From assembly GCA_964419085.1 (NCBI GenBank), contig CAYQOI010000001.1, positions 1-24,517 of the forward strand: 24,517 bases of DNA, written 5' to 3'. Position 1 is the stretch's first letter. Every line of letters starts with the position of its first letter. Made by a program: the position numbers and the translations under genes. Below the pieces are notes generated by a model that ran no database searches, was not told where the DNA came from, and saw only the letters and a program-made list of their open reading frames with translations. Origin of the DNA: an uncultured Cytophagia bacterium (GTDB lineage: Bacteria > Zhuqueibacterota > Zhuqueibacteria > Oceanimicrobiales > Oceanimicrobiaceae). Shown here piece after piece: positions 12,400 to 19,281 of the stretch.

Positions 12400-13071
12400 A
12401 TGACAACTGCGAAGCGCATTTTGATCGTCGACGATGAGGAGGACCTGGCATGGGGCATGTCAAAGAGCCTTTCTCGATGCAGGAATCTGGATGTACGGTG
12501 TGCCTATGACGGCAACCAGGCGCTGGCGCTGATGGACAACGAGCGCTTCGACCTGGTCATCTCGGACCTTCGCATGCCCGGGCGCAACGGCTTCGAACTG
12601 ATCCGCGAGATTCGGGAGTCCTACCCCGCCACTCGGGTCATCGTGATGACCGCCTACGGGTCGGAGGAGGTCATGGAACGGGCCGATGACTTCGGGAGCT
12701 TCTTTTATATCGAGAAGCCGTTTGACATGGGATATCTGAAGCAGACAGTCTTTTCCGCGCTGGGGTTGTCGCAGGCCGGGTTCGAGGGCTCGGTGCAACA
12801 TGCCGGCATCCGGGAACTCGTGGAACTAAACTGCTTCAGCCGAAAGGATTCCACCCTATGGGTGTCGCGGCGGCAAGAAAGCGGCGCCATCTATTTTAGA
12901 AATGGAGATGTCGTGCATGCCGAGTGCGGCGAGTTAGTGGGAGAACGGGCTTTCTACAACATCCTGAACTGGGACGGCGGACGCTTCAAGATTCGTCCCG
13001 GTTCGGCGTCCATCAAGCGAACCATTCGAAGGGATTGGCGCTCCCTTCTCCATCAGTGTCAACAGGTTTAG
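12400..13071 (+). CDS. Response regulator with a C-terminal DUF4388 (PATAN-like) domain
   Basis: REC (VDDE, SDLRMP, MTAYG, IEKPF). The C-terminus GFEGSV...IRELVEL...GAIYFRNGDVVHAE...GERAFYNILNWDGGRF matches the recalled DUF4388 pattern. Confidence 0.82.
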   Translation: MTTAKRILIVDDEEDLAWGMSKSLSRCRNLDVRCAYDGNQALALMDNERFDLVISDLRMPGRNGFELIREIRESYPATRVIVMTAYGSEEVMERADDFGSFFYIEKPFDMGYLKQTVFSALGLSQAGFEGSVQHAGIRELVELNCFSRKDSTLWVSRRQESGAIYFRNGDVVHAECGELVGERAFYNILNWDGGRFKIRPGSASIKRTIRRDWRSLLHQCQQV

Positions 13072-13089: not shown

Positions 13090-13920
13090 ATGGGAGAAGT
13101 CATCGCAATCGCGAGTCAAAAGGGCGGGGTCGGTAAGACGACCACCGCGGTCAATCTTGGCGCCAGTCTGGCGTCGCTCGGCTATCGTGTGATGCTCATC
13201 GATATCGACCCGCAGGGCAGCGTGGCCGCGAGTTTTGGTTTCAGTCGCTACGATATTCGGGCCGGAATTCTGGATATTTTTACCGATGCGGTCCCCGTGG
13301 AAGAGACCATTCATCCCACCGGCTACAACAATTTCGATTTCATCCCGATGAATGTTTGGTCTGAAGAAAACGAAAAGCGAAAGGCGATGGCCGCCGCGCC
13401 GAAAATCAAACTAAAAGATGCCATTGCGCCCATCAGAGAGAAATATGATTTTATCTTCATCGACTGTCCGCCCTCGCTGGGAAACCTCACGTTCAATGCC
13501 TTGGTGGCGGCGGATTCGCTGATCGTCCCAATCCAGTGCGAGTACTATGCTTTGAAGGCACTGGGGCGATTCTTGAAATTGACGCGCATCATCAAAAATG
13601 AACACAACATCAACCTCAAATATCGGGGTTTTCTCCTCACGATGGTGGATCTTCGGAATCGACTCACTAAAATAGTGGTGGAAAAAATCCGATATACACT
13701 CCAGGGTCTGGTGTTCGACACCATGATCCCCAGGAATGTCAGGTTAGCTGAAGTGCCTTACTACGGGAGACCTGTGATCGGGTTTGACAAGAGCTGTAGA
13801 GGAGCCACCAGCTATTTGGACCTGGCCTACGAAATTCTAGGCCGGGAGAAAAAGACGCAGGCAGTGCGGCCACACGAACGACCCGCCGAGGCGTATCACG
13901 GCGTCACGGCTGCGATGTGA
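13090..13920 (+). CDS. parA: ParA/Soj-family ATPase (orphan, no ParB in the window)
   Basis: Deviant Walker A KGGVGKTT, DIDPQG, DCPPSLG, IVPIQCEYYAL and IPRNVRLAEVP. Confidence 0.9.
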   Translation: MGEVIAIASQKGGVGKTTTAVNLGASLASLGYRVMLIDIDPQGSVAASFGFSRYDIRAGILDIFTDAVPVEETIHPTGYNNFDFIPMNVWSEENEKRKAMAAAPKIKLKDAIAPIREKYDFIFIDCPPSLGNLTFNALVAADSLIVPIQCEYYALKALGRFLKLTRIIKNEHNINLKYRGFLLTMVDLRNRLTKIVVEKIRYTLQGLVFDTMIPRNVRLAEVPYYGRPVIGFDKSCRGATSYLDLAYEILGREKKTQAVRPHERPAEAYHGVTAAM

Positions 13921-13932
13921 GAGGAAGACGAA

Positions 13933-14343
13933 TTGTACAGAATTCTGCTGGTAGAGGACGACGAGAACACGCGCACCGGATTGGCTGAACTGTTGCGACA
14001 GGAAGGCTACGCAGTGGAGTCCGTGGCGACGGCTTCCGCGGCTCGTTCTGCAGTTAGCAGGACGGTAAACTTGATTCTCTCAGATCTGCATCTGCCCGAT
14101 GTCAGCGGGCTTGATTTGTTGGAAGATATTCGACGAGGGATACCAAACATTCCCAGCGTGATGATGACCGCGAACGGGACGCCGGAAAATCGTCGCCGAG
14201 GCGCCCGGCTTGGCGTGCGCCACTGGTTGCAAAAACCGTTGGACCTTCCCAAGCTCTTGGCCGTCATCCGGGAAACGGTAAATGAGGAAACAAAGGGAAA
14301 CCCTTCGCAATTCAAGACCAAGGCCGCATACGTCGAGTCTTGA
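13933..14343 (+). CDS. Single-domain response regulator (REC)
   Basis: ILLVEDD, SDLHLPDVSG, MMTANG and WLQKP. TTG start with GAGGA 7 nt upstream. Confidence 0.85.
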   Translation: MYRILLVEDDENTRTGLAELLRQEGYAVESVATASAARSAVSRTVNLILSDLHLPDVSGLDLLEDIRRGIPNIPSVMMTANGTPENRRRGARLGVRHWLQKPLDLPKLLAVIRETVNEETKGNPSQFKTKAAYVES

Positions 14344-14376: not shown

Positions 14377-15075
14377 GTGAACGCGAAGATCGGTCCGTTT
14401 GTCGGTCTTTTGCTAAAGAAAGGGATTTCGGTTGTTTTTATGGTTTTGTTGTTTGTCTCATTGATGAGCTTTACCGCCGACACGTACAGGATGGAGCAGC
14501 AAGAGCGCCGGGTGCAGCAATGGATAGATTGGGCGCAAGATTTTCGGGACGTTGTGCGAGTGGACAGCGTGCGACAGGCTGCCATCGACAAAGTGGTGCA
14601 GCTCATCGGCAAATACAATCGCCGGATGAGCCGGGAAGAAAAACTCGCTATCGCCAATGAGATCTACCGGATGAGCGTGAAGTACGACAACCTCGATATC
14701 GACCTGATCTGCGCGACGATTACGCATGAGACGGCTTTTACCTGGCGGACGGACATCGTTTCTCCGGTCGGCGCCATGGGGTTGATGCAGATCATGCCAC
14801 ACACCGGCTACTATCTGAGCAGGCACGAGGGCATCAAATGGACGGGCGCAACGAAAGTGCTGTTTAATCCGATTTATAACATCCGGATGGGATGCCGCTA
14901 TCTTTCCACGCTCATCGAGCTCTACGAGGTGGACGGCGGGTTGGCGGCCTACAACGGAGGTGAGCGACGCGCGGCGAGATGGCTGGCCAGCGGGCGCAAC
15001 AACCAGGTGCTGTTTGAAGAAACCAGAGAGTACGTGCCTGCGGTGCTCAGGCTGTACAACACCTACAAGAATTGA
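14377..15075 (+). CDS. Lytic transglycosylase (SLT domain) with N-terminal membrane anchor or signal
   Basis: Catalytic Glu motif ATITHETAF, GAMGLMQIMP, NIRMGCRYL, LAAYNGG and ETREYV. Hydrophobic N-terminus. AAGGAGG RBS before GTG 14377. Confidence 0.88.
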   Translation: MNAKIGPFVGLLLKKGISVVFMVLLFVSLMSFTADTYRMEQQERRVQQWIDWAQDFRDVVRVDSVRQAAIDKVVQLIGKYNRRMSREEKLAIANEIYRMSVKYDNLDIDLICATITHETAFTWRTDIVSPVGAMGLMQIMPHTGYYLSRHEGIKWTGATKVLFNPIYNIRMGCRYLSTLIELYEVDGGLAAYNGGERRAARWLASGRNNQVLFEETREYVPAVLRLYNTYKN

Positions 15076-16881
15076 ATGATGTCGACGCAAATGGCCGAAA
15101 TGTCTGAAGAGCGGTTTGTGGCAGAGCTGATTTCGCGGTTCTTTCATCGAGACAGCTACTTCTACTACTGCCTGAATCACCAACTGGAGGCTTCCCTCAA
15201 GGACGAACCGCTTGCGCAAGACCAGAGGTACGTGATTTTCGGTCATATTTTGGATAAGCTGGTGGAGGCGGAGGACAAGCTTTCGGAACTGAGCACCCTG
15301 GGTTCGGGAACCGAATTCGAGAACAGTTACAAGGCTCTCCTCGATGGTGCCAAAAAGCTGCGGCACGCCGAGTTGGTCGCCGAAACCATGAAGATAGAAA
15401 TCGAGCGTTTGGCCAAATCGTTTTTCCACAGCACGCTGAGCGCTTTGCAGGACGTTCGCACACAAAATCTTTTCTTACAGAAACTGGGAATGGCGGACCC
15501 GCTGACCGGGAACGGCACGCCTGAATTAGAGTTGGAAGAGCCGCTTTCTGAAGGACCAGTACTAGCGGAATCGAGTTTCTCCCTAAACGATCTCGCTGAG
15601 AGTGCGGGGGAAGCGACCACTGCGCCGACGGAAAAGGAGTTCCACACCGATCCAGAGACAGACAAGGAAGTCTTCGATTTGGGTGGATTCGAGAACGGTA
15701 CATCCGAAGGGAGCGGCTCTTCTGATTCTAACGGCGGCCCGGTCGACGGCACGAAGTTGCAGCCCAATCACGAGCCCGCGAGTCTGGTGGCGGTGTTTGC
15801 GGACAAAGCGCAGCAGCAGCTCGACCGGCTCGAACAAGGCCTGGCGGAATTGGCCCTGGCTCCCGGCGACGTGAGCGGCTGGAAAACCTGTGAGCTCGCG
15901 TTCGAGTCCATAGCCGGCATGGCGATGGTCTACGGTTTCGACGCGGTGGAGCAGATCGCAAACAAAGCGCGCCGCTTCATCGGTGACATCTACAAGGCGA
16001 ACCTCGATCGCAAAGCATCCGCGGTGGATGCCATCAACTGCGTACAGCAAAAGCTGCGCACGTTGTTGCGAAACGTTGAAGCAGTCGACGGAGGGGCGGT
16101 TCAGAGCATCGTGGATGAGCTCACCACGGCCCGGACGACATCGGCTCAAAAAAAAAGTGAAGAAATAAGCGTCGTCTCGGATACGCCTGCGGTCGGCGAC
16201 GGTTCGTCCGACTTGCCCGTGGCTGACAACCCTCCTTCTCAGGACGCCCGACAGCTTAAACTGCCCGGTGAAGATGACGAAGAGATTTTGCAACTCATCA
16301 AAGAAATTCGCCGCGAAAAGAACGTGGCCGTTGCCGATGAGCCGTACGCGTGCGAAGGAAGCGTGTGCGTTCCTCAGGTGGAGACGGTTTCCGTGGTCTC
16401 CTCAGTGACCGACGGGGTGGGGTCACAGGGCGCCCACGATGGAGTGCCGGCGTTCATAGAGAAAGCCGAGCTCTATTTTGCCGTGCTCGACGACGCGCTC
16501 AAGACCCTCGAAGGGGATCCGGAAAACAGGACCGCGCTCGAGGACATCGAGTTGGCCAGCAATTCGTTGTACAACCTCGCGATGCAGTTGGGGCTTGATG
16601 AAGTGGGCAAACTGCCCGCTCTGGTTCTGGATGTCACAAAGCAGGTGCTGGAGACCGATTACTTGATGTCCGCAGGCGATCACCAATTGCTGGTGGAGGC
16701 AATTCAGCGTTTCCGGAGGATCAGGCAATCGGAGGACGTTACAACGGAAGAGTTCAAAGAGGTGCTGCAAATGCTCGAAGACCTGAGGACGAACGTAAAG
16801 ATGTGGCAGGCACCGGAGTTGAACAGCCTGACTCTTGGAGAATCGGATGGGGTGAGGCCGCGGCCTCTCGACCTCCGGTAG
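15076..16881 (+). CDS. Protein with two Hpt-like (CheA P1-like) domains lacking the phosphoacceptor His, separated by acidic linkers
   Basis: Residues ~236-332 and ~456-550 follow the Hpt pattern F.E.A...L..L...L..L...P. The His position holds E277 (FESIAGMAMVYG) and N496 (SNSLYNLAMQLG). The exact start (15076 or a nearby downstream ATG) is uncertain. Confidence 0.7.
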   Translation: MMSTQMAEMSEERFVAELISRFFHRDSYFYYCLNHQLEASLKDEPLAQDQRYVIFGHILDKLVEAEDKLSELSTLGSGTEFENSYKALLDGAKKLRHAELVAETMKIEIERLAKSFFHSTLSALQDVRTQNLFLQKLGMADPLTGNGTPELELEEPLSEGPVLAESSFSLNDLAESAGEATTAPTEKEFHTDPETDKEVFDLGGFENGTSEGSGSSDSNGGPVDGTKLQPNHEPASLVAVFADKAQQQLDRLEQGLAELALAPGDVSGWKTCELAFESIAGMAMVYGFDAVEQIANKARRFIGDIYKANLDRKASAVDAINCVQQKLRTLLRNVEAVDGGAVQSIVDELTTARTTSAQKKSEEISVVSDTPAVGDGSSDLPVADNPPSQDARQLKLPGEDDEEILQLIKEIRREKNVAVADEPYACEGSVCVPQVETVSVVSSVTDGVGSQGAHDGVPAFIEKAELYFAVLDDALKTLEGDPENRTALEDIELASNSLYNLAMQLGLDEVGKLPALVLDVTKQVLETDYLMSAGDHQLLVEAIQRFRRIRQSEDVTTEEFKEVLQMLEDLRTNVKMWQAPELNSLTLGESDGVRPRPLDLR

Positions 16882-16935
16882 GCGTCCTCCGGATTTTGTG
16901 TCCAAGACATTTCTTACAAGCAGATAGGTTTAAGC

Positions 16936-18675
16936 ATGTCCGACTACACCATGGAAACCGACAAAGAGCTGGAAGCCGTTCTGGGTTCGCACAAGACGCG
17001 CATCCGGATTGTGGGGACCGGCGGTGGTGGCAACAACACCGTCACACGACTCCTGGAGTCCGGCACCAAAGAGGTGGAGGTTATCGCGGTCAACACCGAT
17101 GCCCAGGATTTACTTTTCGCCAAAGCACACCAGAAACTCCTCATCGGCAAGAATATCACAAACGGGTTAGGCGCGGGAAGCGACCCGAAGAAAGGGGAGG
17201 AGTCCGCGAAAGAGAGTTTGCCGGAGCTGGAAAAAGCCCTGGCCGGCAGTGACATGGTATTCATCACCTGCGGTCTGGGCGGTGGGACGGGCACGGGCTC
17301 CGCGCCGATCATCGCAGAGACCGCGAAGAAGTGTGGCGCGTTGACCATCGCGATCGTAACCCTGCCGTTCAGCGATGAGGGGGTGGTTCGCTGGGACAAC
17401 GCGCACAAGGGCCTGGAACAGTTGCAGAAGAATGTGGACACCGTGATCGTGGTTCAAAACGACCGGCTTCTGGACCTGGTGCCGGATATGCCGTTGAGCG
17501 CTGCGTTCAAAGTTGCGGACGAAATTCTGGTGAACGCGGTGAAGGGTATCACCGAGCTGGTGACGGAGAAAGGGCTGGTGAACCTGGACTTCGCAGATGT
17601 CAAGACCATCATGGAAAACGGTGGTCTGGCGATGATCGGACTCGGGGAAAGCGAGTCGGAAAAGAACGCGGAGGAGGCGGCGGAAAAGGCCTTGCAAAAC
17701 CCGCTTCTGGACGTGGAGATCACCGGTGCGAGAAGTGCGCTGATCAACATCTCCGGTGGTCCCGATCTCTCGCTCAAGTCCGCCAAAACGATCATGAAGT
17801 TGGTTGCGGAGCGCCTGGACCCGTCCGCGCGGATCATCTGGGGAACGCGACTCGACGAGTCTCTGGGTTCGGCGATCCGGGTGATGCTCATCGTCACCTG
17901 CCTGAAGTCGCACAGACGGTCTGCTTCGGAGGTGGATATCGCGATCAAGAAAACGGCCGCGGATCAGCAGGGAGCCTCGCCGCAAAAGCCCGCCAAGCCG
18001 GCAACCGCGCCCCCTTCTGCGGATGGTTCTAAGAAGAAAGGCCAAAAGACTCAGAAGAACGGTAGTCAGGTGTTCTCTGAGATCTTTATGGAGGAGTCCG
18101 AAGCAGACCTGGTGATGCTGGAGGAGGCGATCAAAAATCTGAGTCCAGGCAACCAGCCTCACAACGAGAAATATCTTCGCAAGATGAAGACGGCTTCCAC
18201 ATCGCTCTACAACTCTTCGGAGCTGTTCGCATATTCGAGGTTGGCGGAGTTTACCGATTTGGTGGTGCAACTTACCGAGGGGGCCATTAAGCAGCAGTTT
18301 GATCTTTCCGAAAACTTGATCGAGCTGTTTCGGGAGATTCCTGCCGCTCTGAACGGGATGATCGTCGACGACAAAAAAGCGTACGAGACCGCGGACGAAT
18401 TGAAGCAGAAGTTTCACAACGTCCTTGACCTGGTGAACAACCCCGCGGGATCCGGAAACGGAGACGCGCCTGCCCAAGCACCTCGCGCAGAGGTGCTGTC
18501 CCCGCTCGACGAGGGTGCCACGCATTCCCCCGCTGCGTTGGGTTCCGAAGTCTCCGGCGCGGCAGGCGACACCGCTGTTGCGCCACAGACAAAGCCGGAG
18601 AGCGCTGTCCCGGAAGATGGGGAAGAAGGCGCCGAGCCCCAGAAAAAGGTTCGGTATTTTGACAAGTTGTTTTGA
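16936..18675 (+). CDS. ftsZ: FtsZ-family GTPase resembling archaeal FtsZ1, fused to a C-terminal His-less Hpt-like domain
   Basis: Tubulin signature GLGGGTGTGSAP, NTDAQ, GLGAG and T7 loop NLDFADV in residues ~20-325. Residues ~378-500 are Hpt-like, and the protein has low-complexity linkers. Confidence 0.9.
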   Translation: MSDYTMETDKELEAVLGSHKTRIRIVGTGGGGNNTVTRLLESGTKEVEVIAVNTDAQDLLFAKAHQKLLIGKNITNGLGAGSDPKKGEESAKESLPELEKALAGSDMVFITCGLGGGTGTGSAPIIAETAKKCGALTIAIVTLPFSDEGVVRWDNAHKGLEQLQKNVDTVIVVQNDRLLDLVPDMPLSAAFKVADEILVNAVKGITELVTEKGLVNLDFADVKTIMENGGLAMIGLGESESEKNAEEAAEKALQNPLLDVEITGARSALINISGGPDLSLKSAKTIMKLVAERLDPSARIIWGTRLDESLGSAIRVMLIVTCLKSHRRSASEVDIAIKKTAADQQGASPQKPAKPATAPPSADGSKKKGQKTQKNGSQVFSEIFMEESEADLVMLEEAIKNLSPGNQPHNEKYLRKMKTASTSLYNSSELFAYSRLAEFTDLVVQLTEGAIKQQFDLSENLIELFREIPAALNGMIVDDKKAYETADELKQKFHNVLDLVNNPAGSGNGDAPAQAPRAEVLSPLDEGATHSPAALGSEVSGAAGDTAVAPQTKPESAVPEDGEEGAEPQKKVRYFDKLF

Positions 18676-18684
18676 GCGAACAAA

Positions 18685-19281
18685 ATGGAGCGTCGAGACG
18701 TGGACGAGACATTTCCGCTGCGGCACACCTATTTCCGGGAAATGATGCGCAGCCTGAAAAAGATGAAAGCGGCTCTGGGCGCGTGGCAGAAACGGCCAGA
18801 GGAGAGAACGCACCCGCAAGCCATCGCAGCGGCGGCGCGGGAGGTGGCAGACCTGGCGATGATCCACGGCTACGAGGGTGTGGAGAGTATCGCGGAGCAG
18901 TTGCAGCAGAGCCTTGGGCGAATGAATCTTTCCGACGACCCGGAGCGAGCGGGCGTTTTTCTCAAGGTGGAATCCGCGATCGTCGCGATCCGACAGATCG
19001 CTCGCATCGAGGATTTTCTGGAAGGTCGCCTCACCGTGAGACGAGTTGCCGCCGACCGCGGCGATGATGTTTCCTCTCACACGGTGAAGATAGGTGACGA
19101 AGAAGCCGAGCCGTTCTGTGAGATCGAAAAGCTTACCGAGGCCGATTTGAACGATTTGAGCGCAATCTCTTCCCCAGAGCCTCAGTTCGATATCAGCGAG
19201 TTCGAGTCTGTGGCACATCTGATGGCCAAAGCCCGGACGCCGCGCGCCGAGTCTCCCTCGTCCGATTCCCTGCCACATTAA
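18685..19281 (+). CDS. Hpt-like domain protein lacking the canonical phosphoacceptor His, with an acidic C-terminal tail
   Basis: AAREVADLAMIHGYEGVESIA closely parallels AFESIAGMAMVYGFDAVEQIA in ORF 15076. It starts 9 nt after the ftsZ stop. Confidence 0.65.
   Translation: MERRDVDETFPLRHTYFREMMRSLKKMKAALGAWQKRPEERTHPQAIAAAAREVADLAMIHGYEGVESIAEQLQQSLGRMNLSDDPERAGVFLKVESAIVAIRQIARIEDFLEGRLTVRRVAADRGDDVSSHTVKIGDEEAEPFCEIEKLTEADLNDLSAISSPEPQFDISEFESVAHLMAKARTPRAESPSSDSLPH

Follow-up and report, generated by a model that had tools for sequence, protein, structure and literature searches.

Three adjoining genes on the plus strand of a bacterial contig encode four helical domains of the Hpt (CheA P1) type that have lost the phospho-accepting histidine, and one of these pseudo-Hpt domains, assigned by profile comparison, forms the tail of a second FtsZ protein. 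The contig (C1; its whole stretch of 24,517 nucleotides was analysed and is called the window here) belongs to a 3.7-Mb metagenome-assembled genome (MAG) whose relatives carry the labels KSB1, Calditrichaceae or Caldithrix. The three open reading frames (ORFs) lie at positions 15076-16881 (P0001, 601 aa, a FimL-like scaffold with two of the domains), 16936-18675 (P0002, 579 aa, the FtsZ paralog) and 18685-19281 (P0003, 198 aa, a stand-alone pseudo-Hpt with a disordered tail). Canonical phosphotransfer has been lost in all four domains, and because none has a phosphorylatable histidine they are presumably not phosphate carriers; we consider it somewhat better than even, at a probability of about 0.55, that they act instead as docking adaptors that link two-component signalling to the second FtsZ (FtsZ2). 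What is new here is the fusion of a pseudo-Hpt to an FtsZ paralog together with the module that surrounds it, and a literature search that included FtsZ of KSB1 and Caldithrix found no description of either.

An earlier, sequence-only reading of this DNA had aligned one motif in each domain with the Hpt/CheA P1 consensus, and all four motifs are located as it claimed. The residues on the histidine column are Glu277 and Asn496 of P0001 (codons at 15904-15906 and 16561-16563), Thr422 of the FtsZ paralog (18199-18201) and Arg52 of P0003 (18838-18840), all on the plus strand. The register is borne out by profile searches, in which a family alignment was built for each domain and each profile was run by hmmsearch against PDB sequences. 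The best natural PDB match of all four profiles is CheA P1, with E-values of 0.0069 for P0001 domain 1, 0.013 for domain 2 (to the Thermotoga maritima protein), 5.8e-5 for the FtsZ tail (to that of Escherichia coli) and 0.024 for P0003, and the CheA phospho-histidine column is filled in the respective alignments by E277, N496, T422 and R52, with no histidine among them. Pfam Hpt finds domain 1 (P0001 residues 237-333, 17.8 bits) and P0003 (residues 12-94, 14.9 bits) below its cut-off of 24.6 bits, and the Pfam scan gives no Hpt match for domain 2 or the FtsZ tail; NCBIfam CheA models match these last two over the P1 segment, at E 6.8e-6 for domain 2 (CheA_Halo positions 4-123) and 1.5e-3 for the FtsZ tail. 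The lysine at +3 and the glycine at +4 of Hpt domains are mostly gone across the families. When 1.84 billion representatives were searched with a profile of the entire P0001 family, 479 matched at E<=1e-3; outside the family itself the matches include CheA kinases of the ChpA-like, multi-Hpt kind (E 1e-15 to 1e-28), and a chance resemblance is excluded on these grounds. The only CheA found in the MAG, a protein of 769 aa on contig C127 (L001:943-3249), has two genuine Hpt domains, which are unmatched by all four pseudo-Hpt profiles at E<0.01.

The predicted structures agree with this assignment. An AlphaFold2 model of P0001 shows confident helical domains at residues 10-136, 237-358 and 457-576, joined by disordered linkers. 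Domain 1 (aa 234-358; 15775-16149) has five helices and superimposes in VIA on P1 of Rhodobacter sphaeroides CheA3 (3kyj_A) with a Z of 17.8 and a root-mean-square deviation of 2.7 Å over 125 of 129 residues, the fifth P1 helix included; generic helical bundles reach a Z of 10-13, and the value for domain 1 is well above these. In P0003 the bundle (aa 7-124; 18703-19056) is modelled as helices 11-36, 42-61, 64-78 and 88-124 with a predicted local confidence (pLDDT) of about 90, and matches T. maritima CheA P1 (1tqg) at Z 14.7 over 103 of 105 residues; its top fold matches are Hpt proteins together with four-helix-bundle designs that CheA-P1-based profiles also match by sequence. Domain 2 (aa 457-576; 16444-16803) owes its fold assignment to the five helices of the P0001 model (pLDDT about 90) and to BRIC1, a synthetic protein with two repeats that match CheA P1 in sequence; its alignment spans P0001 residues 237-575 and so covers both domains. 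E277, N496 and R52 each fall in the middle of the second helix of these models, where the P1 phospho-histidine sits. We conclude that all four domains are Hpt-type bundles, as the sequence-only reading had it, with the FtsZ tail (aa 378-505; 18067-18450) so assigned by profile and hhalign. They share with CheA P1 and other Hpt domains (PF01627; 3KYJ, 1I5N, 1TQG) the fold, the helix order and the register of helix B, with the fifth helix present in domain 1, and differ from them in the missing phospho-acceptor, the loss of most +3 lysines and +4 glycines, their place below the Pfam threshold and the absence of an attached kinase core.

Judged from the homolog alignments, loss of the histidine is a property of the families, with a few members that keep it, and is not specific to this genome, which upholds the idea of a bacterial pseudo-Hpt family. 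Not one of 42 FtsZ fusions has histidine at the site (S15, K7, T6, A3, I3, Q2, V2, and M, L, R and E), and the sole histidine-bearing match of the FtsZ-tail search is a genuine CheA. Among about 28 P0003-like proteins the site holds Q, R, K, M, E, L, C, A, N or T, with histidine in a single copy. Representatives at 50% identity show E22, D12, Q12, L9, R6 and others for domain 1, with no genuine histidine, and Y38, S27, N15, K7 and others for domain 2 (about 110-116 representatives), about five of which do have it. Four of these five (P0031, P0035, P0038 and P0052) have aspartate at the domain 1 site; the fifth, P0067, has glutamate there, and its domain 2 passes Pfam Hpt at 33.7 bits. These five proteins may show the phospho-site at intermediate stages of its decay. 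In the closest relatives of the window the histidine is absent in every case. Since the domain 1 glutamate is shared without exception only by the 13 closest sequences, a role as a mimic of the phosphorylated state would be clade-specific at best.

The four domains fall into two similar pairs, as had been seen in their motifs. By hhalign, domain 1 matches P0003 at 94.6% (E 7e-8) and domain 2 matches the FtsZ tail at 90.8% (E 1e-6); domain 1 and domain 2 are related at 30%, and no relation is detected between the FtsZ tail and P0003, so that the two types, A and B, connect only through domains 1 and 2 and through the FtsZ domains of the minimal form of the locus described below. A maximum-likelihood tree of 74 domains and 119 columns, in which many forks are unresolved, separates two groups with a Shimodaira-Hasegawa-like approximate likelihood ratio (SH-aLRT) support of 98. 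Type A comprises domain 1, the P0003-like proteins and a histidine-less domain in the N-terminal part of ChpA-like kinases, and type B the FtsZ tail, domain 2 and the real Hpt domains of ChpA and CheA, with domain 2 grouping with these real Hpt domains and not as sister to the FtsZ tail. The FtsZ-tail, domain 2 and P0003 families are each monophyletic and phylum-wide. The likeness within pairs thus reflects two old subtypes, which already existed before the module spread, and the recent local duplication that the sequence-only reading had suggested is ruled out by the tree.

The type-A domain in ChpA-like kinases also points to the origin of P0001, which we regard as a descendant of the N-terminal region of ChpA-type multi-Hpt kinases. 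Five giant representatives (P0142, P0143, P0152, P0153 and P0173; 1744-1823 aa) carry N-terminally a histidine-less type-A domain with the motif [A/S]-M-I-H-G-[Y/F], followed by histidine-bearing Hpt domains; P0142, the one giant representative on which Pfam was run, is a ChpA-like CheA-REC kinase. Their type-A domain is the feature that these kinases (P0142, P0143 and P0152; 1744-1787 aa) have in common with P0001, and the Hpt domains that follow it are the nearest histidine-bearing relatives of domain 2; the difference is that the kinases continue into real Hpt domains, a kinase core, CheW and REC, whereas P0001 ends after two degenerate bundles. The giant proteins are likely to represent the ancestral context of the P0001 scaffold. 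The N-terminal helical domain of P0001 (aa 10-136; 15103-15483; pLDDT about 85-90) can be aligned weakly to ChpA-like N-termini, with P0142 and P0145 as the examples aligned, and its profile gives only weak and seemingly unrelated matches among PDB sequences, such as TFIIS. The linker between domains 1 and 2 contains the motif L-P-G-E-D-(D-E)-E-I-L and a short helix (aa 396-414; 16261-16317), with invariant columns at L396, P397, G398, E399, D400 and E403 and the helix modelled at 401-414. This motif resembles the start of helix A in the ChpA-type Hpt domains of P0142 and P0145, and may be a vestige of an Hpt helix A or a short binding motif.

The closest parallel to P0001 is FimL of the Pseudomonas aeruginosa Pil-Chp system. 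In FimL glutamine occupies the two positions where a phospho-acceptor would be expected (PMC3019171); the protein, together with FimV, brings the receiver PilG to the cell pole, independently of phosphotransfer (PMC10519157). A Foldseek search of Swiss-Prot models aligns FimL (Q9I2S3) over P0001 residues 38-580. The two proteins are similar in size, consist of helical bundles and linkers with histidine-less Hpt-like domains, lack a kinase and are homologous to the N-terminus of ChpA-type proteins, and P0001 has the makeup of a scaffold; no FimL-specific family was matched by the window proteins in Pfam or NCBIfam. Given the FimL precedent, a bacterial pseudo-Hpt that docks a REC domain is not a new concept. 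The system described here differs in its context, which is a second FtsZ, a ParA-like protein, an SLT protein and an NtrC-type two-component system, with no type IV pili, FimV or CyaB, and in that the pseudo-Hpt set is distributed over three proteins, one of them FtsZ; receiver binding is in our case putative. Plant AHP6, a soluble competitive inhibitor of the cytokinin phosphorelay, resembles the domains described here in having an Hpt fold with the histidine replaced (by asparagine) and in acting without phosphotransfer. It belongs to another Hpt subfamily and another kingdom; the present system shows no sign of inhibition, and a cytoskeletal GTPase carries one of its pseudo-Hpt domains.

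The FtsZ paralog passes the curated model TIGR00065 at 419.6 bits (cut-off 295.2), matches Pfam Tubulin and FtsZ_C, and has an intact GTPase core, the translation containing both G-G-G-T-G-T-G and the N-x-D-x-x-D T7 motif. In its tail the pseudo-Hpt lies between two linkers, and the terminus is a conserved amphipathic peptide, K-K-V-R-Y-F-D-K-L-F (18643-18672), which stands in place of the FtsA/ZipA-binding peptide; the canonical C-terminal (D/E)-[IV]-P-x-[FY]-L sequence is absent. The end is conserved in homologs (loci L006-L019) as A-V-K-Y-F-D-K-L-F, with an amphipathic moment of 0.72-0.73 that is above shuffles, and might act as a helix that targets the membrane or as a peptide that binds a partner. 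A canonical FtsZ of 405 aa is encoded on the minus strand of contig C449 (L005:1264-2481), directly after an FtsA-like ORF; its core is 44% identical to that of P0002 and it ends in D-Y-D-V-P-A-Y-L-R-R-R-M-D. With a canonical ftsA-ftsZ pair present on C449, P0002 is therefore a second FtsZ paralog. By profile search, 64 of 101 sampled genomes of the phylum have the FtsZ-tail pseudo-Hpt, each of them exactly once and always within a frame of 500-800 aa.

Upstream of P0001 and on the same strand lie genes, named here from Pfam matches, for a REC-PATAN protein (12400-13071), a ParA/MinD-like ATPase (13090-13920), a single-domain CheY-like REC (13933-14343) and an SLT lytic transglycosylase (14377-15075), and this order is kept in the KSB1 contigs L006-L009 and others. 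The neighbours of the pseudo-Hpt genes are FtsZ, ParA-like, SLT, REC and NtrC or histidine kinase (HK) genes, and do not place the locus in a Pil-Chp, type IV pilus or FimV system. The window contains five REC domains by Pfam, the number given in the sequence-only reading, and the kinases of the operon, encoded by ORFs 7338 and 8837, are of the HisKA type. In the single-domain REC the active site is complete by alignment (D9, D10, D51, T79 and K101). The long form of the locus reads REC-GGDEF, HK, REC-PAS-HK, NtrC, [REC-PATAN], ParA/MinD-like, [REC], [SLT], P0001-like, FtsZ-Hpt and P0003-like, the last of these directly following the FtsZ fusion in most loci. In distant families of this phylum the locus takes a minimal form (L040-L049, for example L043:390-5914), composed of REC-PAS-HK, NtrC, a single-domain REC and FtsZ-pseudo-Hpt, without ParA, SLT, scaffold or P0003-like gene; here the REC gene is directly upstream of the fusion gene, whose product has about 510-530 aa and lysine at the histidine site. 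HK-NtrC genes are present in the operon in all cases. Because the long and minimal forms share both, the constant core is the two-component set plus the FtsZ-pseudo-Hpt fusion.

P0003 and its relatives have features of their own outside the histidine site. Its His61 (codon 18865-18867, plus strand), within the motif D-L-A-M-I-H-G-Y-E-G-V-E, had been put forward as an alternative phospho-site; it is common, and conserved in the close family, but many relatives have Y, Q, F or C there. Because of this replacement, and because it aligns with a hydrophobic CheA residue (M or F) before the turn between helices B and C, it is more likely to be structural. An F-D-I-x-E motif in the disordered tail (19186-19200, plus strand) is invariant in all seven aligned homologs and may be a short linear binding motif. 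In other lineages many P0003-like proteins exceed this one in length (270-430 aa) and have at their ends basic-hydrophobic tails such as K-L-R-K-L-F-G-M-Y and I-R-R-F-F-R-R-L-F-G-R-R; such tails are found at L008:11704-12873, L030:6105-7292 (minus strand), L029, L026, L032, L034, L037 and L038, and the P0003 of the window is without one. We take these tails to resemble the membrane-targeting sequence of MinD, and for most of them the hydrophobic moment is not above shuffles. The 390-aa homolog at L008:11704-12873 also contains a second Hpt-like domain, with glutamate at the histidine position and the motif L-A-C-E-G-L-R-A-S-A-Q-K-V-G.

How these components might work together can be set out as follows. 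P0001 would serve as a FimL-like scaffold; the FtsZ paralog carries a pseudo-Hpt in place of its usual tail, and P0003 is a free-standing pseudo-Hpt. All of these bundles would have kept an ancestral property of Hpt domains, that of docking receivers or one another. The two-component genes next to them (HK/NtrC) would feed phosphorylation of the CheY-like REC or of REC-PATAN, and the phosphorylation state of the receiver would, through the docked pseudo-Hpts, set the assembly or placement of FtsZ2 polymers. The single-domain REC is a candidate partner because its active site is intact and because, in the minimal form, it is encoded directly upstream of the FtsZ-Hpt gene. That the pseudo-Hpts dock the receivers of the operon and so couple FtsZ2 assembly or placement to signalling is a suggestion by analogy, which we hold tentatively and at somewhat less than even odds. 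A fuller version makes the FtsZ2 pseudo-Hpt the docking site through which a phosphorylated CheY-like protein would directly switch how a second FtsZ ring polymerises, attaches to the membrane or is positioned, P0001 and P0003 being the FimL-like scaffold and anchor. Taken as a whole this version is doubtful; such a switch might drive a conditional, sigma54-controlled morphogenesis, for example an alternative division or SLT-mediated remodelling of the cell wall.

Several observations weigh against docking adaptors. Three of the four families vary in the residue at the histidine site, which implies that the spot itself is under no strong constraint, and the most conserved surface of type A (D-L-A-M-I-H-G-Y-E-G-V-E) is at the helix B-C turn, off the classical REC-facing side. 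A four-chain complex prediction of domain 1, the FtsZ tail and P0003 with the REC, the one partner scored, gave 0.00, a result that we list here and that speaks neither for nor against binding. The fold of the FtsZ tail is predicted from profile comparisons, and that of domain 2 is taken from the model of the whole of P0001. Finally, because a few relatives retain the domain 2 histidine and one of them, P0067, is above the Pfam Hpt threshold, phosphotransfer may survive in some members.

The main alternative, though an unlikely one, is that the bundles associate with themselves or with one another, A with A and B with B, and so bundle FtsZ2 onto P0001 and P0003 in the manner of a Zap protein or an anchor, with no receiver involved. 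The distribution of types would suit this, the scaffold having one domain of each type, FtsZ one of type B and P0003 one of type A, as would the strongly conserved type-A motif away from the histidine site and the basic-hydrophobic tails of many P0003-like proteins, whose presumed MinD-like character would fit an anchor. The minimal form, however, has FtsZ-Hpt and REC without either scaffold or P0003, and for this reason the FtsZ pseudo-Hpt must there have another partner; the hydrophobic moments of the tails, for most of them not clearly above those of shuffled sequences, lend the anchor no clear support, and to our knowledge monomeric Hpt and P1 domains do not pair with each other. A role as decoys, which would compete with genuine Hpt or P1 domains such as those of the C127 CheA for receivers or kinases and so damp a phosphorelay, is improbable. 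The mechanism is established for plant AHP6, the CheA of this genome has two real Hpt domains with which decoys could compete, and the domains are homologous to ChpA/CheA P1, but the HisKA kinases of the operon need no Hpt. That one domain is fused to FtsZ, and that the genes stay linked to those for FtsZ, ParA and SLT throughout the phylum, favours a structural over a titrating role.

Non-canonical phosphotransfer, on Ser, Thr or Tyr at the histidine site, on His61 of P0003 or on the domain 2 histidine of some relatives, we regard as highly improbable. ChpA has been described with Spt and Tpt as well as Hpt domains (PMC10896506), 21 of the 42 FtsZ fusions have S or T at the site, 65 of about 116 domain 2 copies have Y or S, H61 is conserved in the close family, and about five representatives keep the domain 2 histidine, with P0067 passing Pfam Hpt. 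Yet the site is also K, Q, A, I, V, L, R or E in each family, the +3 lysine and +4 glycine that accompany it are mostly lost, and the exchange of H61 for Y, Q, F or C at a position that is hydrophobic in CheA is hard to reconcile with phosphorylation there. It is scarcely credible, lastly, that these are generic helical bundles which look like Hpt domains by chance, even though the PDB E-values are modest for three domains (0.007-0.024) and helical bundles often score Z 13-14 against unrelated bundles: four independent profiles choose CheA P1 in the same register, the Z of 17.8 for domain 1 includes the fifth P1 helix, the family profile finds ChpA-like kinases, and the P0067 relative exceeds the Pfam threshold. 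Docking adaptors remain the preferred reading of the four domains.

Histidine-less Hpt adaptors have been known from one well-studied case, FimL, together with plant AHP6, and here they are found fused to FtsZ and phylum-wide, in a host phylum that is almost uncultured. The family records a stepwise decay of Hpt domains, with some relatives still histidine-bearing and one above the Pfam threshold, and with it a passage from signalling domains to scaffolds. If receivers do dock on these domains, the module would provide a direct physical wire from phosphorelay or two-component signalling to a polymer of the tubulin family, and FtsZ2 would be a rare bacterial FtsZ paralog in which the partner-binding tail has been exchanged for a module derived from signalling.

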